A stretch of 44,899 nucleotides of DNA from Catajapyx aquilonaris (taxonomy: Eukaryota): assembly GCA_000934665.2 (NCBI GenBank), contig KZ537998.1:124001-168899 (forward strand). The letters are read 5' to 3'. This document shows, piece by piece, positions 6,301 to 43,569 of this stretch (positions are counted from its first letter, which is position 1; each line of letters starts with the position of its first letter). A program made the position numbers and the translations under genes. The notes under the pieces were generated by a model. It made no database searches and was not told the DNA's origin. It worked only from the letters and a program-made list of their open reading frames with translations.

Positions 6301-8932
6301 AGTGGCATTTCATAATAAAACCGTGGTTTACGGCGTCATTCCCGCGCTTGTAGATTGGATTTTTATTATTGAGCAGTGTTAGGTGTAGGTAGACGGCGAT
6401 GCCAACCAGCCGAATAGGGAAGCCTCGCCTGGTATCTGCCAAAACGGCAATTAGCAGAAGAGCGTGGAAGCTGCTGGCGAGTGGCAAAAAGTCAGGGTCG
6501 AAAGAAGCGTGATCCGTCTCTTGCGAGAGTTTAATGGTGGAAGACGCCGGATTTTCTGGATGGCTGCCGGAATTAACTGCATCCAGTCTGGCCTACATTA
6601 TTCAGCACTGTGTGTGTGTGTGTGTGACACATCAAAGCCAACGGATGAGTCCAGTTTTGTTTTCAAAAGCAGATGACGCGCCTGGTCTATAGCTTCGGCC
6701 ACATTATACAAACTTTGCGATATCATTCTGGCGCCGTACTAGGCAAACATCATTGTCACACCGGGGGTAAATAGATGACTAAATGCCTTTCGGATTATTT
6801 TTTTTTCCAGTCTCTATAATTGTACTGTCTGATGACTTGACTGTAACAATTGAAAGGCTCCGGGGAAAGAAAAAAAAACATGTTACGTACTCACTTATTA
6901 ATTTCTACTGCAAGAAATATCAGTAAAATTGGTATGTCACGAAACAATATTATTACAAATGATTGGGGCGTATCGCGCTCACAACTGCGAACGACGTATT
7001 TTGCAAATGGGCACGCAAATCATCCATTTGAAGATTTCCTCTTCCAAAAGAAGCTGAAGTGTTGGTAGGCGTGGTTAGGGGGTTAGGAAATGCAGTCTGA
7101 GAGGAAAACCGAACGTGGTAGAAAGAAGGGGGCTAGAGCAAAATTGGAGACGTGGGGGAGACGCATTGATTTTTCGCGCCATCCTGCGTCGACGCAACTG
7201 CACACTTTTATAACACGGTGCATACTGTACAGGATACGCATCAAAGCATGAACTATTAGTACAAAAAGATTTGTCGCCTCCAGGATGAAAGTGGAATCCC
7301 GTCGACAAGATGATTCCTCACGGTTGGAAGTTAGTTGGGAGTTGGCATGGAGGAGGGAGAAGAAATCGAACCAAGGATCGTATACTGGCAAAAGTGCGAG
7401 TTGATCAAAACTCCGGAATGGCAAATACCCGCATATTTAAGCAAGCGGGTCGGAGCCAAATTCGCAAACTTTAAGCTGTTGAATTAGGCAAATAGGAAGA
7501 GAGGCTTGGTACGGGGGAGGGGGGGGGGGAGAGAACCTGTACCGGTTTGCTCATGGTTGCATGTCGGTTTCTTAGATCATTTCCAGGAAGATGCGCGGGG
7601 GGAGAAAAAACCAGTATGCTAACGATAGTGGAGGTGAAAAGTGCACCATAAATAGGTCGTGTTTATGATCTAATTGGAGAATATGCGTCATTTGGATGAT
7701 TAGTGACTAGCACTTTGACTTGATACAAAATATGTCGTGCTAGTTCTGGGCGGCTTGGCCACTGCAACAGGTTGGCCTTTTATAGAATCCAGGGCTAGCG
7801 GTAAGCGAACAGGTGGGCTTACGGTAGGTAGGTAGGTGCAATTCCCCGGATTATTATCCGGCTCCTAACATCACAGAACGTCGCTCCGTGCAAATAGAAG
7901 GGGGGTTGAAAGATAATCGAAATGAGACAAGGCGATGGTGTCTCCCGGAGCGGAGTTAAGTCAAGGCGCGGTACCTATCGATGAATGTTAATGAGTCAGT
8001 CTTTGCTACACTACGCCTTTTCGTCATCACTTCAGGCTTCCCCTAGCTCAATTTGCAGCGGGATTTGCCCCCTGTCTTCTTCGAAGGAAGCATAGATCAA
8101 GGAAACTGTGGGGCCCCTTCCGACAAAGACACCTACGTCTCTGCCTTACTTCATGAATTACTAAATAGACTCTGGATAATTTATGAAGGGTTTACACGTG
8201 TATACGCAGTGCGAGACGGTTGAGTATTATTTTACCTGCTGCTTTTCCCTGCAGCAATCATCTCCAGCAGAAGGATATTGAGGTAAAAAAAAGGTCAGGT
8301 AATCATCTCGATACCTTCTTCAAATACGAATCCCAAGAGAGGTAGGAGGAACATGGTCGGCACGATTCCTCTTATTGTGCTTCATCAGAGAGTGGTCACG
8401 AAACGGGCTACTCCAGCTGCAGCAACTCCAAATTCTGGGGGCCCTACCAATCTTCCAGGTGAAGGCCTTTCGCCATAAAAATCCAGGGACCTGCTTTCAA
8501 ATATGCAGCTGCCGATGGCATCAAAAGTAGGGGGCGAGTCTATCGGGTGTAATAAAAGTCACTCGTGTTATTCGCATTCTGCCGCCATCTGCCTGGCACA
8601 CCGGCACGCCCATTGATTGGTTGTTAAATGCGTGACGCTACACTGCTCAATGCTTTCTTTACCCATATATCCAAACCACTTGTTCTGGATTTACCATCAC
8701 GCAACCAGCATCCATCAGGCGGGACCGTTGCGCCATTCCCGCGTGTCCGGCACTGATTGGCTTACCAGGTGCGTGATCCGACGCGACGCGACGCGCCTAT
8801 AATAGCCAATCAGCGACCAGAAGTGACAATGACGCTTCAGTCTCGCACCACAATTTTGGTTTTCAAGTCTTAAAAATATCCTTTTCAGTCCCCAGATACC
8901 CTCCATGACTTTTACAATTTGTCACTCCTTCC

Positions 8933-9012
8933 ATTCCTGTAGCTCAGTGGTAGAGCAACGCTTGAACCCATCTCAAGCGTGGTCCCGGGTTCGATTCCCG
9001 GCGGGAATACCA
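8933..9012 (+). tRNA. tRNA-like cloverleaf with atypical extended anticodon arm; isotype undetermined (tRNA-like ncRNA, pseudogene or SINE head)
   Basis: Acceptor ATTCCTG/CGGGAAT. D-arm GCTC-AGTGGTA-GAGC. 8-bp stem ACGCTTGA/TCAAGCGT with loop ACCCATC. Variable region GGTC. T-arm CCGGG-TTCGATT-CCCGG. Discriminator A9009, then CCA. A box (TAGCTCAGTGG) and B box (GGTTCGATTCC) fit consensus. Confidence 0.75.
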
Positions 9013-9945
9013 CAAATCAAAGAAAAAGTCGCTCTTCCCAAAATTTTAAGTCGTCCTCTACCCCCACTCAATTTTGCTCTTGCTTTTGGCCAAGGACAGC
9101 CCTCTGGTCCTCCCACGCACACTCTAACTTCACCCTCCACATCAAATCTCCCCTACCCCTAAAACCTCGATCGATTCTCCTACCCATCAGCCTGCTTTGG
9201 CCAGGAAGTTGGGGGGGAGGGAGTTGGAATATGTCGCACTTCCATGAAAAACACGCCATCTTGGCAAGTGGTCAACATCCTTGGGGCGTATGCAACCATG
9301 GCAACATCCCCTCTTTTTACTAGGAAAAAAAAACGCCAGAGGGGGGATATGGCACTAATCCAGTCTTGTTAAGACCAGGATCTATGAAAACCTGGGCTGT
9401 ATTAGAGATTACCTGTGGTGAAAACTAGAATCCGTCACAACCGCCGATTTAAGACCGGTCCTGACAAATATCGCCCGCTAAAGCTTATTGATGCCTCTCG
9501 TGGGGTTGCAAAAACTCTGGAGTGAAGAAAAATAGCTCCACATTTTTTTTGTGTGTGTGTTTGTGAACGATTTCGCTGTCTTTCAAGCTCCCGTTCCCAA
9601 GGGTTCAATATTTCAAGTCAGTTGTTTTAAAATAATTCCTGGAAGAAGCTGACAGGTTGATCTTGGAAGAAGGAATCCGGCTTTTGTTTCGCATCTGCCT
9701 TTGAGTCTTTCTGGGCCAAAAACGGAGATGAAACAGGCTGTTTCTTTGCGTTTCTTCAAACTTGCACAGCTTCTCCATCCAATTTTTATGCAGTGGAAAA
9801 GGGCCCGGTTTGAAGGGGGGAGGGAGGGGGGGTGTTTGCCACGCACTACCAAATAATGGAGGGCTAATGGTCTAGGCCTCTCCAATCCGTTTGTTTGCTA
9901 AAAACATATGACTTATCTTTCATCTGAAACGTATGGGGGGGGGGG

Positions 9946-16536: not shown

Positions 16537-16600
16537 GACCTCCCCCCACCCAGAAAAATTATTTTTGTAACCCTCGCCCCCCAAAACAGACAGAGAAATC
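16537..16600 (+). other. 5' UTR part of the ATG-containing exon (splice acceptor at 16535-16536)
   Basis: Polypyrimidine tract + CAG (ccttcttctcctacAG) 64 nt upstream of the ATG, implying an upstream non-coding exon. Confidence 0.6.
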
Positions 16601-16876
16601 ATGTTGTGGTTGGTGATGAGCTTGTTGGGCGCCCTGTCCGCAAGCACGTGGGCAGACAACAGCGTGTACATCAGTTCCAAATTCGGCGGCCTGCAGCTGG
16701 TCACCTCCTCCACAATGCACTGGACGCCCGGTGAGGACGGCAGCCGGCCAGAGGGGGCAGTGGAAGGAGGGTTCGAAGACGGACGCCGGTACTACGTCTG
16801 CCGTGCTTGGCACACGGGCATCTGGGTGGCCGGCTCCCTCAACGAGTCGCGATGCCAGGCTGCCTTCGCATCTCAG
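16601..16876 (+). CDS. uzip: unzipped (Uzip)-like protein, coding exon 1 (92 codons: signal peptide + first DM9-like repeat)
   Basis: ATG at 16601 with A at -3 (gaaatcATG). Hydrophobic signal peptide MLWLVMSLLGALSASTWA. Motifs QLVTSSTMHW, GAVEGG and YYVCRA match Drosophila Uzip as I recall it (QLVTSSTLVW, AVEGG, YVCR). Ends in phase 0 at CAG|GTAAGC (donor 16877). The supplied ORF reads through into intron after this point. Confidence 0.9.
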
Positions 16877-19800
16877 GTAAGCCAGATGTCCTCTTTTGTA
16901 TCTAGGCAGCTGTTCTACATCCCCTTGTTCCTTTATGCGCTTCCAAATATACTGGGTAGGACTGTTACCCCGCCTCGTCACTACCAGCGCTTGCCCCCTC
17001 GTATAATAAGGTCGCAACAAAGAGGCAACCGCATTGCTGCCCAACACCCCTCCCCACTTTTGGAGTGTCGTTGGATAGTGAGGGGTAATTTCCTTTTCAC
17101 TGGATTCATCAAAGGGTGGATTGTCATCTGGGAGTGTCACTCTTGGACATGTGCAACTGAAAGGGTATCCCCCCGACCTTTCTGTGTAACTAGACTTGAA
17201 ATGAGAAATTATTGCGGCGTTACAATGTCGTTAACTAGAGAGGTTATATGCCTATAGGGACACCGTTTGCTATTGTAACTGTAATGTGTTAACAATGTTT
17301 TCCTTCTGAATATAACTGCACGCTACCTTGCTGTCGGAATATTAGGCCACGGCATAGCAGCATATTGAGACCAATATATTTGATCGCCTTCCACTGTATA
17401 TATTGCTGTTATCGTTATTACTACTAATGCTTGCAATATTACGACCTACAACTGGCTGCATTGTTATAAAAATTACCTGCGACGTTGGAACTGTTAAGAA
17501 TTTAAATCAATTAAAATATAAGAAAAACGACAAACTTTTGTTCAAGTAAACCTGAACCGATTAAAAGATTCCAATTATCGAGCCATTTATTGCCACAGCA
17601 TAACAGGTACAACAGTAAAGGAGGCTACGGATGTCCCGCGTAAGGTAATGGTTAATTGAAAAGCTCCTAAATAATCTATCGCCCCTACGGAATTCACAAC
17701 CATCCGCAAAAAGGGTACTGCTTCACCTCTCCAAACAAACTTGTGCAACGCACTGTATACAGGAGGCATTTGCCCTGGCACTAGCTTCTTAGTTGCCCTT
17801 GGCAACACTTCATTAGGGGGGAGTGGTTGCGCAGAAAACACCCGACATGTCACTCTCAAGATGTAAAATTATGGAGAAGCTAGACTAGGTTCAGCCCGTT
17901 AAGAATCGCAAAATGTGAGAAAACATCGCCAGGTTCCTAATGGCCGTGATATAGACCTGCATCGGATCCCCCCCCCCCCTCCGCATCTAGCGGAATAAAT
18001 CACGCCAATTACGTAACTGCCAACTAAAAAGCGGCGGGGTGGGATAGTTACACCTCTTTGCACCGGGGGTCATGCCTAGGGGCGGTCAAATTTGCAGGAA
18101 TTAATGAGGAATTAAATTGCTAGCCGGCTGCAATTAAAAGCCCTAGCTTGACTCCCATACCAGACAATTTGGGTCCACATCATGAAACTGGGCCTTTTTT
18201 GGGCGACTGTTCCGATGGGGGGTAGCATCTGCCCTCTAACACCGCTTCAGCTGCACTTCGATCGTGTTTTAATGATAGCTGATAGGTCCATCTGCGGCCT
18301 GCCGATAGATACGGCCGTGAATGAAGATGGTAACCCCCCTTTGTCGGCATTGTTTAGCAATCGGTTATGTGCTAGGCAGTCACCAAGTGAGTGTGATGGT
18401 ACGCCCACCAGGACAATGACTGATTGTCGCTCAGAATCAGGGTCATCCTTATCCGGATCGTTACTCTAGAAGGGGTCAAAAATTGTCACAAAAATTTTGG
18501 CTCGTCCAGTAGGTGTCTTCACTTGGTGTTTGCTCGCTGGGAGGAGGGTTCCAACAAGATGGCTCAGAGCATTACGGTGCACCCAGGCATAAATTAGAGT
18601 TTCTGGCAGAGTTGGCCGCTTCATACGGGGACATGGAGAAAAGAGGAGGACCCAGGGAGGCTCAAGCCATAACGAATTACGTTTCTCTCCACTTCTCTCA
18701 AAATCATAGGGAGTGAAGCTGCACACCCATGCAGATTCATCTGGCACCTTTCTATGGACGCTGCAGAAAATGGGATCCTCTTTTTCAGCCACGACTTTAT
18801 TTTGAGAGAGAGAGAGGGCGGGGGAGGGGGGGAAGACAATTGGAAAGGGAATAATATCCGAGAGGAAATTGGAAGTAATGGATTCAGTCGGGATGGAGGA
18901 CACCACTTTGTGATAACTGAAGGTCACGGGTTACAAATGAGGTCATAAAGCCGGATTTTGGCGGTGAAATTACATTGCCACTGACACCTTATATAGGAAG
19001 GAAGGGTAGGTATTACTAAGAGGGATGTCGCCATTTCGGTAATTAAGTTGGACGTGGAAGAAAATTATACCGCCCGAGTTCGAAATGGAGGAAAAGGAGC
19101 TAAAAAAAAATAATTTCTGCAGCTGTCTGCGTTTTGAGTCTACCGCTGTAATTACCTAAGGAAATGGGTATTAACTACTCCCAACTCGAGTCCCAAATTA
19201 AATCCCCTAGGTTCATAATAAAAAATCGATCCAATGGACCCCCCTGCACCGATACAAAAATTTCCCCGTGATCAAGTTGATAGCTGGTGCCGCCGGATTT
19301 ATGGGCTTGGAAACGTATTAAAATGGAATCAAGTAATGGAAAATTTCGGTAGGGTCCCCCCTCCCCGGTTTGAAATGGAAGTTTTCAGCAGGGCAGTAGA
19401 CGTATCCTTTGAAGCGAAAAAATAGAGCGCAAAAAGCAAAGCTTTGTCTCAAAAAAGATAGAGGAACTCCCCCCTTGTTGTCTAGTATTAAATAATGCAC
19501 AACATTGTAGTAGAGTGCATGGAATATCATAAGGCTTCCTTGCTATTTCCTCCACCTGTTTACCTCGCTGTGTAGACCCACATTTCATATGCAGCTGCTA
19601 CGTGAACTTCAACGAAGCATATACAGTGCCCCTCTGACTCCAGCTTCATCTGCAATATTTCACCTACTTTAGCAAACAAACAAAAAAATATCATTGTTGG
19701 CCGTGTGTGCTGGCGGATTAATAACAATTTCCACGAGGAGTAATTAGGGTCGATATCCACTTAGGATTCCGTTAACTTTGTACTGTGTATATACGCCGTA

Positions 19801-22331
19801 CAGATTATTTGCATGAGATTACGGGTGGGAAATATTAATCATGTAACACGGAGGGCTTGTTTTACAACAAACAAAACTTTGGGTCCAAATCCCTCGTTTG
19901 GCAGGCCGGAAACATTGATGGCCATAGAATTATTCAGTGGTACACGTTTGTTGACAGCGCAGAGTGTGGGCGAGGGAAATAAAATAACGCAATATCGTGG
20001 CCTGGCATTCGGTGCGCAAATTACCATGTGTTTGATGGCGTCGCTATTACTCCATAAAAATGCAAAAAAAGCCGACTTCAAACGCCGAACGACCTTAGTT
20101 ACGCGAATTTGATGTAAAGCAATTAATGACAAGAGTGCAGTCATAATAATCGGTCACAAAAGCCTCGAATTATGCATCCAGGCTGCAAGAGGTATTATGC
20201 CTTGAACAACAGGCAAGATGTCAACCACCTCTTCCCATTCACTACACATATTTGGAATATATAAATTTTTATGTAATGTCTAAGTTCTATAGAAGTGTGT
20301 GTTTGATGATTGCACATACGTTACGCCAGGAAAAGTATCAATGACTGCTACTTTTCCATCCCATTCCAAACCAAAGGCACATTTGGTACGTTTACTACCT
20401 TTTCACATGGCATGCTTGCTTAGGTCGCGACTTTAGGTAGACATTTGGCCATCCACGACCAAGACTGACAAGTCTATACCCAGCTCAAAAAAAAAAAAAA
20501 GCCTGCCCCCTTTTCCAATCTCTTATCCTCTCGGGCTGTTATCGGCTGCGAGCTTCTTTTTGGGAGGTCCCCCCTCGCTATCTCGGATGTTGGCTGAAGG
20601 ATGGTCATATGGCCTCTAGAATCACCCGTAAAAAGATGGCGAGCGGAGACACTACCGCGCAGAGTTGAGCTCTTGTGATAAGGCAGGCTTTTTTTTCTCT
20701 CTCTTTCTTAGATCCTCTCAGTCCAGTCTTGAATTAGGTGCCTCCTCTTCTCGCCCTGAAACCAATGAGGGCAACGAACTGTTGACCCTTCGATCATGTC
20801 TTTTTGATAACTTGTGTATGGACATATGTATGTCACAACATTCGGATTTTTAGCCTCATTTTGAGACTACCCCCTTTTTAAAATCCCACACAAATACTCC
20901 AGTGTTCATGGCTCCGAGAAAGAATGCGATTTAGTCACGCAACCTCATTCTATCGAACAATGACTCCGACTCGTCATTCCTTAAAAACCCAGCACAATTA
21001 GTACTGCCAACAGCCCTAAAATTGTCAACCAGTTCAGCCTAGATTTGGCGACTTTTTTTTGCACTCCAGAGTATTACAGCTCTATCATTGTTGGCTACTT
21101 GCCGATCTCGATCGGAAAAATAAACAAAAACTAGTTGGGTCTAGAAAATCTCACGCTTTAGTGGACATAGTTTTGTGCTTGGCTGAGCAGATGCTAACCA
21201 TGAAACTTGCTCTTCACGTTACTCCTATGTATTGTGGAGGAATCCTTCTGTAAAACCATGCCCGACTGTACAAAAACATACCAAGCGCTAGTACCAAACC
21301 GCACACCTTGACAATCGTATCAAACATATCTGCTAGACCAAACACCATTTTTGTCGATTTTTGTGCGCTGTGCCATTTCGTCATTTTTCATTGTGTTTTG
21401 TCCGCAAGCCCGCCGATTGTTTGCAATTCATTAAGCTCGCCGGAGCGAATTTAGTTATCCGGGAATCCACATCCCGGCGCCCCTTTTTGTGGATTCGCTT
21501 TGATGTTTTCAAAGTGATTCCAAATTTCGATTGCCAAAAGGGAAAAGAAGATTTGCAGAAAGGCGGAGGGTGGTGTCAGCATCAAAACTTGGGAAGAAAA
21601 CTTTGGGGACGATATGTAGCGCGTGACGACTGGCAGGTGTCAACTGTATATATATGGGGCCATGTTTTGGGGAAATCTGAGTGACAACATTTGGAGAAAA
21701 TGAGGTGGAAATGCGACTTTACGGGGGCCTGCTGATAGAATTATCTAAATGGCTGCTCTGCAGGAGCGGAAATGACGCCTTGTAATGAGGACTGGGGCCT
21801 TGATTGTAGAAAGACGCCGTTGGCGGAGAAAACATGTTGCATAGTTGAGTGCCCGAATGGGACACTTACATCATCGTCACAAAATAATCGCACTGATAGT
21901 TCCACTTCGAGTTCCAAACTCCAGATCAAAGGGACTTTGTGGAAAAATCGGGGTCGGGGGGTTGACTCGTTACCAGAAATTAGTTTGGCGTCACAAAAGG
22001 CGGACCTGAAAAGGTATTCCCAAAGCGAGCAATCAATCGATAAATATATCAACAATGCGTAACGTTCAATCCGACACTTTTATCTCGCGCCGGATATTTG
22101 ATAACACCAGTCAATGGCAAAATATAATTGCGTTATTTATCGTATCTTTTTTTGTGGAAGTCGACTGTTATAATCAATTGCTCCATGGTCAGTTTAAAAT
22201 CTGGAATTCCGTGCAATCGCCCTTTGAACAATATTACACATAATTCCCGTTGCCTCATACTCTAATGCAATGATTGTGTTTAAGTCAATGAGTTTAGCAA
22301 AGTATGACAGTGGGCTTGTTATGCTTTTCAG
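16877..22331 (+). other. 5455-bp phase-0 GT-AG intron of the uzip-like gene
   Basis: GTAAGC donor and pyrimidine-rich TTTTCAG acceptor join the two exons in frame. The joined protein is colinear with Uzip, with no obvious missing block. Confidence 0.85.
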
Positions 22332-23420
22332 ACGCAAGCCTACGAGCGCTACGAGGTGCTGGAAAACGTGGACCGAGCCGCCCGCCTAAGCTGGGTACCA
22401 TGGACCCGATACCAGCTGATCCCAGGAGGTGCCGTGGAGGCCGGTGGCAGCTACATCGCCCGCTACCGAGCCAGCGATGACTCCGTGTACCTGGGTCTGA
22501 TGGACCTGCGTGACGTGATGAGCCGAATACGTGTGTACACCGAGCACGGAATGCGAGAGTACGACAATGGTGAGATCCTGGTGGAGATCGAGCCAGTCCG
22601 CTACGAAATGAGCGGCATCAGGTTCAACAAGCACCGGGTCCACGTGACGGTCGAGCCGAAGGTGATGGATCAGGGGATACTGATGAACCGAGGGGACGAA
22701 GCCATGAAGACTGAGAGTGTACTGGCCTACGAAGGAGAGTACCGGCTGTACTGGGGCCAGGGGGTGGCCATCTTGAAAGGGATGCCCACCGTGATCCACT
22801 TGCCGAACGCCACCAGTTTGGACATCAAGTGGGGGATCGAAGACGTCAAGTCGGGCAAGATGACGGTCGAGGCCGCCGCATTCCTGGGGCCTCAAACGGC
22901 GGTCAACATCAGCCTGGTGTGCAACCATACGGAGACGGTGATGACGTACAAGGCGCGGTTGGCGGCCGAGTACGAAGACGGCGAGAGGCGAACAAGAGAG
23001 ATCAGCGGCAGCCGTCGAGAGGTGATGCTGAAGGACATCCAGGTGGCCTATGGACCTCCTTACTACATCACCAACGGAACACTTGTCCCCACCACCACCA
23101 CAACCACCACTACCACTACTACCAGCACTACCAGCACCACCTCCACCACCATGAGGTCCACCACCCCCGAGACCCTGAGACCACCAGTAATGCCCAAGTT
23201 CTACGACCCGGTGTCTGACGAGCCAGACGACGACAAGTGGCCGGATGTTCCCAGCCGTGGTAACGGGATGCAGTCGGATGAGGGCAGCAGTGGCGGTATC
23301 CAAGACGCGTCTAAATCCACCTACAGCGTGATGGAAGATAAGCCCAACTCGGGTGCCATCCACCGATGGTCCCTGCTGGTTCCCACCTTCCTAACCGTAC
23401 TCACAGCGATCCTGGTCTAA
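22332..23420 (+). CDS. uzip: unzipped (Uzip)-like protein, coding exon 2 (362 aa + stop; spliced total 454 aa)
   Basis: Acceptor atgcttttcAG at 22330-22331 in phase 0 gives ...AFASQ|TQAYERYEVLENV... Strong GC3 codon bias. Uzip-like motifs GEILVEIEPVRYE, LYWG, IKWG and NGTLVPTTTTTTTT. Terminal hydrophobic segment SLLVPTFLTVLTAILV then TAA. Confidence 0.93.
   Translation, partial: TQAYERYEVLENVDRAARLSWVPWTRYQLIPGGAVEAGGSYIARYRASDDSVYLGLMDLRDVMSRIRVYTEHGMREYDNGEILVEIEPVRYEMSGIRFNKHRVHVTVEPKVMDQGILMNRGDEAMKTESVLAYEGEYRLYWGQGVAILKGMPTVIHLPNATSLDIKWGIEDVKSGKMTVEAAAFLGPQTAVNISLVCNHTETVMTYKARLAAEYEDGERRTREISGSRREVMLKDIQVAYGPPYYITNGTLVPTTTTTTTTTTTSTTSTTSTTMRSTTPETLRPPVMPKFYDPVSDEPDDDKWPDVPSRGNGMQSDEGSSGGIQDASKSTYSVMEDKPNSGAIHRWSLLVPTFLTVLTAILV
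23091..23150 (+). repeat. Coding (ACC/ACT)n repeat encoding the Thr/Ser-rich stalk
   Basis: Encodes a Thr-dominated run with interspersed Ser immediately after NGTLVP, within uzip exon 2. Confidence 0.9.
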
Positions 23421-28904: not shown

Positions 28905-29370
28905 ACCGAAGCAGATTGGTGGAGTGTATAAGGCGGACTTCTAATCGAGAGGTCCTGGGTTCGAGTCCCGGGGTCTGCGATCCTGACCGTGGTTTTCTGT
29001 GGTGTCCCACGGTCCTCCCAGGAAAATTCCGGGGTCGCTTCCGTAGACAATAGGCCACAGCCGCCCCATTCCTTTCCTATCCTTGACCCATCCATGGGGA
29101 GGTGCGGTGTCTGTGGGGAATTCTGACCCGCACCAAGGGATTGTCTTGCAACCTGACCCCCTGGGGGACTGCACGCGACCCGCAACATAAAGACAACGCA
29201 CTTGCACCAGTGTCCCCTCCTCACAAATCCCTATCCAGATCCATGCACAGGAGAGAAAAATGGGAAAGAAAATTCGTAGGAAAAAATGGTGGTATTCCAC
29301 CCCCTAAGGGACACAATGGCTCCAGCACGGGGTAGCAAATTTAAAAATCAAAAATCAAAAATCAAAAATA
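28905..29370 (+). mobile_element. tRNA-derived SINE, copy 2 (longer variant/subfamily)
   Basis: Same 5' start ACCGAAGCAG, B box GGTTCGAGTCC, same central block and similar 3' end (CCCCTAAG...AATGGCTC...CACGGGGTA). It has about 200 bp of different internal sequence and an (AAAATC)n tail. No exact TSD found, so the 3' boundary is approximate. Confidence 0.85.
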
Positions 29371-41500: not shown

Positions 41501-41802
41501 ATAAAATAATAATAATAATTCATACCCCGTTATCAGCCATCGGCTCTTTAGGGGGGAAGTTTGTTTTGTCTGGAACTCTTTGCTTTTCATTTTACTGCGC
41601 TTTATGGGATAGGATAGGGACGGAAGGAAGCGGCTGTGGCCTATTAATTACGGAAGCAACTCCGGAATTTTCCTGGAAGGACCGTGGGAAACCACAGAAA
41701 ACCACAGAAAACCACGGTCAGAGTTGCCGGCCCCGAGATTCGAACCCAGGACCTCCCGATTAGCAGTCGGACGCCTTATCCACTATGCCAACCTGCTTCG
41801 GT
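41501..41802 (-). mobile_element. tRNA-derived SINE, copy 3 (same subfamily as copy 1)
   Basis: Reverse complement begins ACCGAAGCAGGTTGGCATAGTGGATAAGG...GGTTCGAATC and is colinear with copy 1 through to a short ATT tail. 15-bp TSD TCTTCAATGCGAATA at 41486-41500 and 41803-41817. Internal 10-bp tandem duplication ACCACAGAAA at 41691-41710. Confidence 0.9.
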
Positions 41803-43205
41803 TCTTCAATGCGAATACTGTATAAACACGTCATCAGAGCTGCTCATGTATTCTGTAAATTATACACCATATTTTATTTCCTTCAAATGTTGCTGACCTC
41901 TAGGAAAAGGTCTGAATCCGACAGTTCAGCAAGATGTCTTTACTGATACCAGAAGATCATTACCTTCGGAGCATATACCAAAACACAAAATATAAAGTTG
42001 TACGTATTATCTGTCTCGAACGTTTCGGGCAAACATATATATCTTGACGTGATATACAACCATCACTCCATCAGTACAATAGCGTCATATTCCGATATCT
42101 CCCGGCATTCCAATAAACTCTCCATATTTCCGTGATCAGTCGTTTCCGCCAACCTTCTTACTCTCAGGGTAGCAACATCATGTTTCCATTGATTTTTACC
42201 TCAGTTATATTCACAAAAACGGAGATAAACCGCTTTTAACGTTTGGGTGGGCACACCCATGATAACATTTTCTCCGATACAACTGACACCAAATGGTGCT
42301 CAATAAATCCCCATGATAAACACCCACTCTTTTCCTCCCACATGCAGTCAAGAGCACCAAACAGCATACAATCTCTACAAGAACGTCATTCTTCAGAGAA
42401 CCTATTAATGTGTCGGTAAAGCGTCGATATAGCTTTAAAAAACTGAAAGTCAGCGGAGATCTGGTAATATTTCCAAGAGGGAGGAAGAGTATGCCTGCTG
42501 CATAGTGTGAATTATTGCAGAAGGTCATGGGATGAGGTATAAAAGCGGCCTAAAATTGCAGAGCTATGCAAAAAAAATTAGACATGGACTCCATCATACA
42601 ATATTAGCAAAAAGCTGAAAATTTATCATAATATGCATAGCTAAGCAAGCTTTGCCTTTCGGCTGCATACGCATATTATAAACATATCATAACATAATAG
42701 CATATTAGCATAATAAGAATATAGCAAATAACTATGAAAAATTCATGTCGCTGTCGTAATCTCAAACTCATCAACTTGCAATCCACGTCAAGGGATGTCA
42801 TCTCACATTACCCATAAAAACTCTCATGAGTGCGATTTTCCTACCATAACGTTTAACGTTTAATCTCCCAGAACACATTGCACAAATAGTACGGTTGGAG
42901 AAAAAAAATGCTGTCACCAAACAAGCCATCCCCATTTTTTACTCACAACTGTACGTGTACATTCAAAGCGTCTTGGACTGTCATAATATATATATTTTTA
43001 AAGCAATGCTTGTACAATACGCAATACTCTTTAGCTCATCCCTACATACACGCACCTTGGCCCCAATCTGAAGCCAAGAGGAACTTCCCCATTGACACGT
43101 TTGGCCCAGCTGGCACTTCGCCCACATATACGACTCCCTCTCACCTTCATGATTCATCAAGTCATGCTGCATTACAATTTGTTCACTTTTTTCCCACCAT
43201 TCCTC

Positions 43206-43287: not shown

Positions 43288-43569
43288 GGAGCCCGTTCTT
43301 CGGGAGGCCTTTTTCCACATATTGCAAACCTCATTAATATTTACCTAATCGTCTTTCTTACTGCACCATTTCCACTGACAAATAAACTGCCTCTGGTGCA
43401 GTGACATGATGTAGTTTGATAATGATTCTATTTACAGTGTCGTTACTTGAGGGCATGATAAGTTACGCCAATATAATCAGGATTGATTTTTTCAGTGATA
43501 TTCCAGATGACATATTCAAAAGAAGTCATCCCACAGTGTAATGTTGTGCCTAAATATGTTTGAATTATA

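Follow-up and report, generated by a model that had tools for sequence, protein, structure and literature searches.

The tRNA-like element and its surroundings

The window analyzed here is the whole 44,899-nucleotide stretch of Catajapyx aquilonaris DNA (assembly GCA_000934665.2, contig KZ537998.1, positions 124,001 to 168,899). It is insect DNA, as judged from the reading frame at 22308–23420, which matches insect "protein unzipped" in 56 hits. The best of these, to Timema douglasi, is 41% identical (E = 2.1e-66), and thus there is no close relative among the annotated proteins searched. The frame at 16571–17257 bears a DM9 repeat. Using six of the 56 hits, we mapped uzip exons by tblastn. 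The tRNA-like element described below has the same strand as uzip and lies 7.6 kb upstream from the first coding exon mapped; the site may be a 5'-UTR intron of uzip, the preliminary description having supposed a 13-kb first intron, or intergenic DNA. The features are as follows.

8921–8932 (+): upstream copy of the flanking repeat, GTCACTCCTTCC, a putative target-site duplication (by alignment to 9028–9038)
8933–9009 (+): tRNA-like body (Rfam tRNA model, 54.3 bits; ARAGORN; minimum-free-energy cloverleaf; 24 of 24 pairs)
8933–8939 and 9002–9008 (+): strands of the acceptor stem
8940–8950 (+): A box, TAGCTCAGTGG
8942–8956 (+): D arm
8958–8965 and 8973–8980 (+): anticodon stem, 8 bp
8966–8972 (+): anticodon loop, ACCCATC
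8981–8984 (+): variable loop
8985–9001 (+): T arm
8988–8998 (+): B box, GGTTCGATTCC
9009 (+): discriminator A, read in the sequence
9010–9012 (+): genomically encoded CCA, read in the sequence and part of the ARAGORN gene
9013–9027 (+): A-rich tract adjoining the CCA, CAAATCAAAGAAAAA, with A at 11 of 15 positions, interpreted as a degenerate oligo(A) tail
9028–9038 (+): downstream copy of the flanking repeat, GTCGCTCTTCC, starting where the A-rich tract ends
9044–9047 (+): first TTTT past the element, 35 nt beyond the discriminator, a putative Pol III stop
about 16586–16880 (+): first mapped uzip coding exon, with the DM9 repeat (tblastn)
about 22314–23417 (+): next uzip coding exon (tblastn)
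257–629 including duplications, 271 to about 555: tRNA-headed SINE, copy 1
28931–29083: tRNA-headed SINE, copy 2
41584–41803 (−): tRNA-headed SINE, copy 3, with a 10-nt internal duplication

ARAGORN called a tRNA at 8933–9012 on the plus strand and counted the CCA within the gene. In agreement with this call, Rfam RF00005 matched 8933–9009 at 54.3 bits (gathering score, 29; E = 4.5e-9) over model positions 1 to 71 of 71, so the gathering score is exceeded and the element counts as a tRNA in fold. The alignment gives the anticodon loop 12 letters, compared with 6 in the model. The cloverleaf is also the minimum-free-energy fold (−30.9 kcal/mol; z = −2.62), and only 3 of 200 shuffled sequences were equally stable. 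Its stems measure 7 bp (acceptor), 4 bp (D), 8 bp (anticodon), and 5 bp (T), with a variable loop of 4 nt; all 24 pairs are standard, a single T-G occurring at acceptor pair 6. The anticodon stem, ACGCTTGA/TCAAGCGT, is a perfect 8-bp palindromic pair that closes the 7-nt loop. Both internal boxes agree with what we take to be the Pol III A-box and B-box consensus. Likewise, the element has all of the letters that we presume to make the elbow contacts (T8, A14, G18 G19, T54 T55 C56, A58, and G15/C48). Thus, the structural part of the preliminary description held throughout: four fully paired stems with one wobble in the acceptor, an anticodon stem 3 bp longer than normal, boxes at consensus, and an encoded CCA behind the acceptor stem and discriminator A, with ARAGORN, which it had proposed as a check, detecting a tRNA here, as did the Rfam model.

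Despite this fold, the element is not a decoding tRNA and has no usable anticodon, because its loop lies three pairs too far from the elbow and offers neither U33 nor purine 37 (C stands at the second place of ACCCATC and T at the sixth). The two ARAGORN calls are mutually incompatible: with introns disallowed, the program returned Trp(cca) with a distorted D arm, and with introns allowed, it returned Asp(atc) with a 4-nt "intron" at 31/32. This bears out the earlier reading that the loop cannot be taken as a normal anticodon. In the element we found neither a 5-bp anticodon stem, nor U33, nor purine 37, nor one unambiguous anticodon, by which a decoding cytoplasmic tRNA is recognized. An intron-containing pre-tRNA was considered and rejected as well, since the ARAGORN insert falls at 31/32, whereas an intron is expected at 37/38; moreover, when the 13-nt stretch 8963–8975 was read by hand, deletion of any 6 contiguous letters never yielded a loop with T33 and purine 37 on a 5-bp stem.

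The window also contains a tRNA-headed SINE family, which has three copies in 45 kb; its body measures about 200 nt, and its tail is (ATT)n. Its head scores 34.9 bits on the Rfam tRNA model and is called by ARAGORN as Ser(gct) without a long variable arm. Copy 1 is flanked by a perfect 14-bp target duplication, TACTGCTAGCGACA, at 257–270 and 616–629, around its (ATT)n tail. The element resembles this SINE in its tRNA-like head, Pol III boxes, and duplications (14 bp in the SINE); it differs in that the SINE has the ~200-nt body, the (ATT)n tail, and three copies in 45 kb, as opposed to one. In sequence, the element has only generic T-arm letters in common with the SINE heads, and the two can be regarded as unrelated, as had been proposed. 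A search of the window with a 27-mer of the element, allowing up to 3 mismatches, returned 1 match, the element itself (0 expected).

Three further observations concern the surroundings. By eye, a cluster of motifs resembling a Pol II core promoter is seen at 8750–8870, 95 to 180 nt upstream of the element. It comprises what we take to be two opposed CCAAT-type motifs (CTGATTGG from 8753 and CCAATCAG from 8806), TATAATA at 8798–8804, a presumed arthropod initiator-like TCAGTC at 8837–8842, and AGTCT about 28 nt further on; the spacing from TATA to initiator is about 10 nt too long. If transcription does start at this cluster, the resulting transcript would include the tRNA-like element. Two inverted repeats were also noted, one at 43568–43668/43912–44012 (101-nt arms, 86% complementary, 243 nt apart) and one at 616–656/689–729 (41-nt arms, 95% complementary, 32 nt apart) adjoining SINE copy 1, and these may be a MITE and a local palindrome. 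A scan for sigma-70 promoters and intrinsic terminators was set aside as inapplicable, the host being a eukaryote.

Flanking sequences, related loci, and apparent age

The preliminary description had overlooked the flanks. The upstream repeat copy ends at 8932 and abuts the first acceptor base at 8933. Local alignment of 8921–8932 with 9028–9038 gave 10 of 11 matches and one 1-nt gap, i.e., an imperfect repeat of 11 to 12 bp. When the repeat was anchored to the 5' end of the element, 3.8% of 19,724 sampled positions scored equally; unanchored, it is not significant, as 26% of 4,942 random segment pairs reach its score. The 16-mer at 9013–9028 holds 11 A, and just 0.6% of the 16-mers in the window contain as many. 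An encoded CCA is expected by chance in 1 of 64 cases. We further applied a joint filter for an A-rich tract at +80 together with an adjacent repeat to 88,270 positions on both strands of the window. Only 8933 and one other locus, 20405–20410, passed, a figure that is generous to the element since the filter criteria were set after the feature had been seen. At the other locus, the repeat is a T-run motif away from the A run. In this region (20405–20520), a run of 14 A (20487–20500) stands behind about 85 nt of unique sequence, and CCTTTTC occurs upstream (at about 20398) and again 10 nt past the A run; Rfam found nothing in 20405–20520 at E values up to 1. The region may represent a short poly(A) retrocopy or may have arisen by chance.

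Contigs from four runs of the organism (X1, X2, X4, and X5; two samples) were aligned to 8483–9462 at ≥80% likeness, such alignments showing presence rather than absence and passing over copies less than 80% alike. The stretch is present in four contig sets of one sample, which may be the source of this DNA; the small run of the second sample does not cover the locus. In X1, 12 contigs aligned, one of which covers the whole stretch without a difference, and two of which match an unrelated spot at 8677–8709. Three others match from 8936/8939 to 9002/9005 with 5 to 7 other letters and 7 to 8 gaps; judged by the alignments, these have a shorter anticodon arm and different flanks, as expected of ordinary tRNA genes. 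At the top of the acceptor stem, which these alignments do not reach, the element differs from the three genes in three pairs, on both strands, and thus it is no simple copy of them. Another two contigs align over 33 nt within the T arm and acceptor strand. The last four must start no earlier than 8975: until that position, the summed depth is accounted for by the spanning contig and the three tRNA genes (23.8 + 31.6 + 35.1 + 24.0 = 114.5), and it rises only from 8976. X2 and X4, with 11 contigs each, showed the same pattern. The word depth of the element-matching contigs in X1 was 24 to 35, compared to 23.8 for the locus contig, depth not being a copy number. Because the same contig was aligned differently between runs and some indels were not displayed, we name no parent isotype.

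Aside from these matches, the flanks within 8483–9462 are covered by a single contig. Among the contigs aligned at ≥80% likeness, none carries the long anticodon arm a second time, none represents a source gene with an identical 8-bp arm, and none a parent gene with the acceptor stem of the element. Nor did we find, at this likeness, dispersed copies sharing a body and a tail, the mark of a tRNA-derived SINE; the preliminary description had named dispersed copies with a common body as the outcome that would make the element an ordinary SINE head, and with one contig over the flanks and no second anticodon arm at ≥80% likeness, the SINE-head alternative fails this check. Two related loci did emerge. 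One has the D and T arms of the element with a different elongated anticodon hairpin and was recovered in all four runs, from two independent samples. Its match begins at window position 8975, and its hairpin, of about 7 pairs with a bulge and a 7-nt loop, was reconstructed by joining a loose end of 30 letters to the aligned stretch behind it, in which one other letter occurs at a place that is not given. This second long-hairpin locus hints at a small family. The other is a contig that differs at 2 letters from 8981–9013 (T arm, acceptor strand, and CCA); beyond this match, it continues into sequence that is not A-rich.

Searches outside the organism were directed at the combination of D-arm and T-arm motifs. 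With 16 to 31 nt between the motifs, there were 0 hits in 185,579 prokaryote genomes and 0 hits in viral contigs. Bacterial tRNA genes often encode CCA; given these two null results, the CCA is unlikely to stem from a bacterium or a virus. A metagenome scan restricted to long arms likewise returned 0 hits. A wider metagenome scan returned 20 loci, in all of which the gap from the D-stem to the T-stem motif is 21 to 22 nt, compared to 27 nt in the element. ARAGORN found ordinary tRNAs in 6 of these and no tRNA in the other 14; those of the 14 that were inspected share one repeated sequence, which on its repetition is taken as the SINE head of another host.

The flanks and the body give different impressions of age. 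As an apparent measure of age, the two repeat copies differ at 2 of 12 positions, and 4 of the 15 letters of the tract are not A. In simulations, all 24 pairs survived in 4% of runs at 9% divergence, a value near the lower 95% bound (0.086) of 6 in 27, and in 0.5% of runs at 15%. If the flanks are used as the measure of age, the body is therefore more intact than a neutral relic should be. For 2 in 12 taken by itself, the interval extends down to 2%, at which 49% of simulations keep all pairs, and the tail may never have been pure A. The mismatch between body and flanks may thus reflect youth with noisy flanks, or selection, or a spurious repeat; we read it as at most a hint of constraint.

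Origin of the element

The order duplication, processed RNA, CCA, A-rich tail, and duplication is the layout left by standard target-primed retroposition. A mature 5' end and a CCA are both present, the repeat ending at 8932, the acceptor starting at 8933, and the CCA occupying 9010–9012. An A-rich tail followed by a bracketing duplication is present as well, with the reservations of an imperfect repeat and a post hoc test. In all, three of the four defining features of a LINE-mediated small-RNA retrocopy are found in the element, the fourth being an identifiable source gene together with an empty site in a relative. A retrocopy of a CCA-matured RNA had been listed in the preliminary description as an alternative to its main inference; with the mature 5' end and CCA, the A-rich tract, and the bracketing repeat, it has become the best-supported reading. 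In our view, a mature tRNA-like RNA was probably retroposed as DNA to give the 80-nt element, which would be a singleton or belong to a very small family. On this reading, the element is a tRNA-derived retrocopy, a known kind of genomic relic, and any function of it would be hypothetical.

Such a copy would have arisen in four steps. A Pol III source gene would have given rise to an RNA with a normal acceptor/T/D body and an 8-bp anticodon helix. RNase P would then have trimmed the 5' end, and the 3' end would have been trimmed and supplied with CCA. Processing of an RNA at its 5' end and CCA addition need the acceptor/T-arm half alone, and eukaryotic nuclear tRNA genes normally do not encode CCA. 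Next, the RNA would have gained a short A-rich tail, for which our guess is the oligoadenylation that tags aberrant tRNAs for surveillance. Finally, a LINE reverse transcriptase would have copied the RNA into a staggered chromosomal break, with duplication of 11 to 12 bp of target; before insertion, the target site would hold a single GTCRCTCYTTCC unit. We infer the processing order, the tailing, the reverse transcriptase, and the prior presence of the long stem in the source RNA. The long stem may instead postdate the insertion, because none of the contigs aligned carries a source gene with this arm.

Target-primed retroposition with duplications of this size operates in this genome, as the perfect 14-bp duplication around SINE copy 1 indicates, and tRNA-derived retropseudogenes with flanking target duplications are documented in mammals (PMC5322556). 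Several points weigh against retroposition, among them the absence of a source gene with this arm from the contigs aligned, the differing top acceptor pairs of the three matching tRNA genes, and the intact body beside flanks that look older. The flanking repeat is short and imperfect and, when unanchored, is matched in score by about a quarter of random segment pairs; the tract is impure; and the SINE of the window uses (ATT)n tails, so that a poly(A)-type partner must be assumed for the element. The repeat does not begin with A's, and the type of endonuclease is thus not fixed by an L1-type target motif. We also considered an origin from the strong-stop DNA of an LTR element joined to its primer tRNA. 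This was rejected, as the letters after the CCA are unlike an LTR end and the flanking repeat closes the insert 15 nt past the CCA. In the literature searched, we found no paper that treats SINEs, strong-stop DNA, CCA, and tRNA together.

An unlikely alternative is that the element is a tRNA pseudogene that arose by duplication at the DNA level, with its anticodon arm remodelled afterward and its flank features present by chance. The remodelling would have required one or two indels, or a replication template switch yielding a perfect longer hairpin in one step. Template switching is reported to produce perfect stems within RNA genes in one event (PMC8794818), and the anticodon stem, as a perfect 8-bp palindromic pair, has the form that such an event would leave. 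The other long-hairpin locus, moreover, differs by indels in the same arm, and the insignificance of the unanchored repeat suits flanks that are accidental. However, this account leaves the CCA (1 in 64), the A tract (0.6%), and a repeat abutting both ends unexplained. A parent with the same acceptor stem is not among the contigs aligned at ≥80%, and all of the remaining arms are intact, which would be unusual in a decaying gene.

Still less probable, in our estimation, is the main inference of the preliminary description, namely that the element originated at this site, in the sense orientation upstream of uzip, as a tRNA mimic that is under selection, does not decode, and serves as a Pol III ncRNA or as a cutting signal for RNase P/Z; the CCA, A tract, and repeat would then be coincidences. 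The element itself speaks for a mimic in several respects: the fold is flawless at 24 of 24 pairs, the elbow-contact letters presumed above are complete, the Rfam tRNA score of 54.3 bits compares with 34.9 bits for the SINE head of the same window, and a TTTT lies downstream. The body is also better preserved than the flanks, and the second locus, with the same D and T arms, has an elongated hairpin too, in four of four runs from two samples. Nonetheless, the flanks suggest otherwise, since their combined features are rare and are not needed by a mimic. An encoded CCA generally inhibits tRNase Z (PMC3161902) and would hinder the proposed 3' processing. The metagenome scans, with their 20 wider hits all at 21 to 22 nt between the motifs (27 nt in the element), contained no relative with a long arm, and the match to the mascRNA-menRNA model is far under its threshold (23.2 versus 42.5 bits).

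The element is very unlikely to be a copy of an old, diverged, minimal tRNA-derived SINE-like family whose other members are <80% alike: a tRNA-like core with an A-rich tail and a flanking repeat is indeed how such elements are built, at least one other locus carries a related arm with a long hairpin, and one contig matches through the CCA with two other letters, but an old family predicts a decayed copy where the element is intact, the contig matching through the CCA continues into sequence that is not A-rich, and the X1 word depths of 24 to 35, which are not a copy number, lie near that of the locus contig.

The element may be transcribed in place, because both Pol III boxes are kept and a TTTT follows 35 nt downstream. 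In that event, RNase P would cut at 8932/8933, and the CCA would generally inhibit tRNase Z, so that the 3' end would be trimmed by exonucleases. We hold it rather unlikely that the copy records, or became, an expressed, non-decoding, long-stem tRNA-like RNA in a small selected gene family; what makes such a family conceivable is the second elongated-hairpin locus together with the better preservation of the body than of the flanks. In such an RNA, an anticodon helix lengthened to 8 bp would be joined to a normal acceptor/T/D body on which RNase P and the CCA-adding enzyme can act.

Relation to known systems and implications

The closest precedents for a retroposed copy of a matured tRNA-like RNA are the tailless tRNA retropseudogenes of mammals. 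These are described as copies of small Pol III RNAs, including tRNAs, made by LINE machinery, with target-site duplications and few copies per source (PMC5322556), as proposed for the element; they are mostly 3' truncated at loops and without an oligo(A) tail. In contrast, the element lies in an insect host, is not truncated but of full length, ends in CCA followed by an A-rich tract, and has a non-canonical anticodon arm.

A second point of comparison is provided by the rodent ID elements, which derive from the BC1 RNA master gene and have a non-decoding tRNA-derived core of about 75 nt, Pol III boxes, an A-rich tail, and duplications. Similar to these, the element combines a tRNA-derived core with Pol III boxes, an A-rich tail, a flanking repeat, and no decoding. 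It is unlike them in its full cloverleaf and encoded CCA and in that no multi-copy family was seen among the contigs aligned. The mascRNA and MEN-beta RNAs (RF01684), which are excised by RNase P and RNase Z, share with the element a tRNA shape, an altered anticodon arm, a terminal CCA, and the lack of decoding. Membership in this family was rejected at 23.2 bits against a gathering score of 42.5 (E = 0.6). In mascRNA, the CCA is added post-transcriptionally and an A-rich tract lies upstream of the tRNA-like part, whereas the element encodes its CCA and has its A tract downstream. In the literature searched, we found no nuclear family of long-anticodon-stem tRNA mimics in animals.

For annotation, the locus is a warning, as gene finders label it tRNA-Trp or tRNA-Asp despite its inability to decode. 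Retroposed copies are snapshots of processed RNA. If our reading is true, the element would be a clean insect case in which retroposition captured a mature tRNA-like RNA at full length, together with its CCA, its tail, and a target duplication. It would also mean that 5' processing and CCA tailing still took place on an RNA whose anticodon helix was abnormal. The broader interest of the finding would depend on the long-stem RNA being expressed and conserved.
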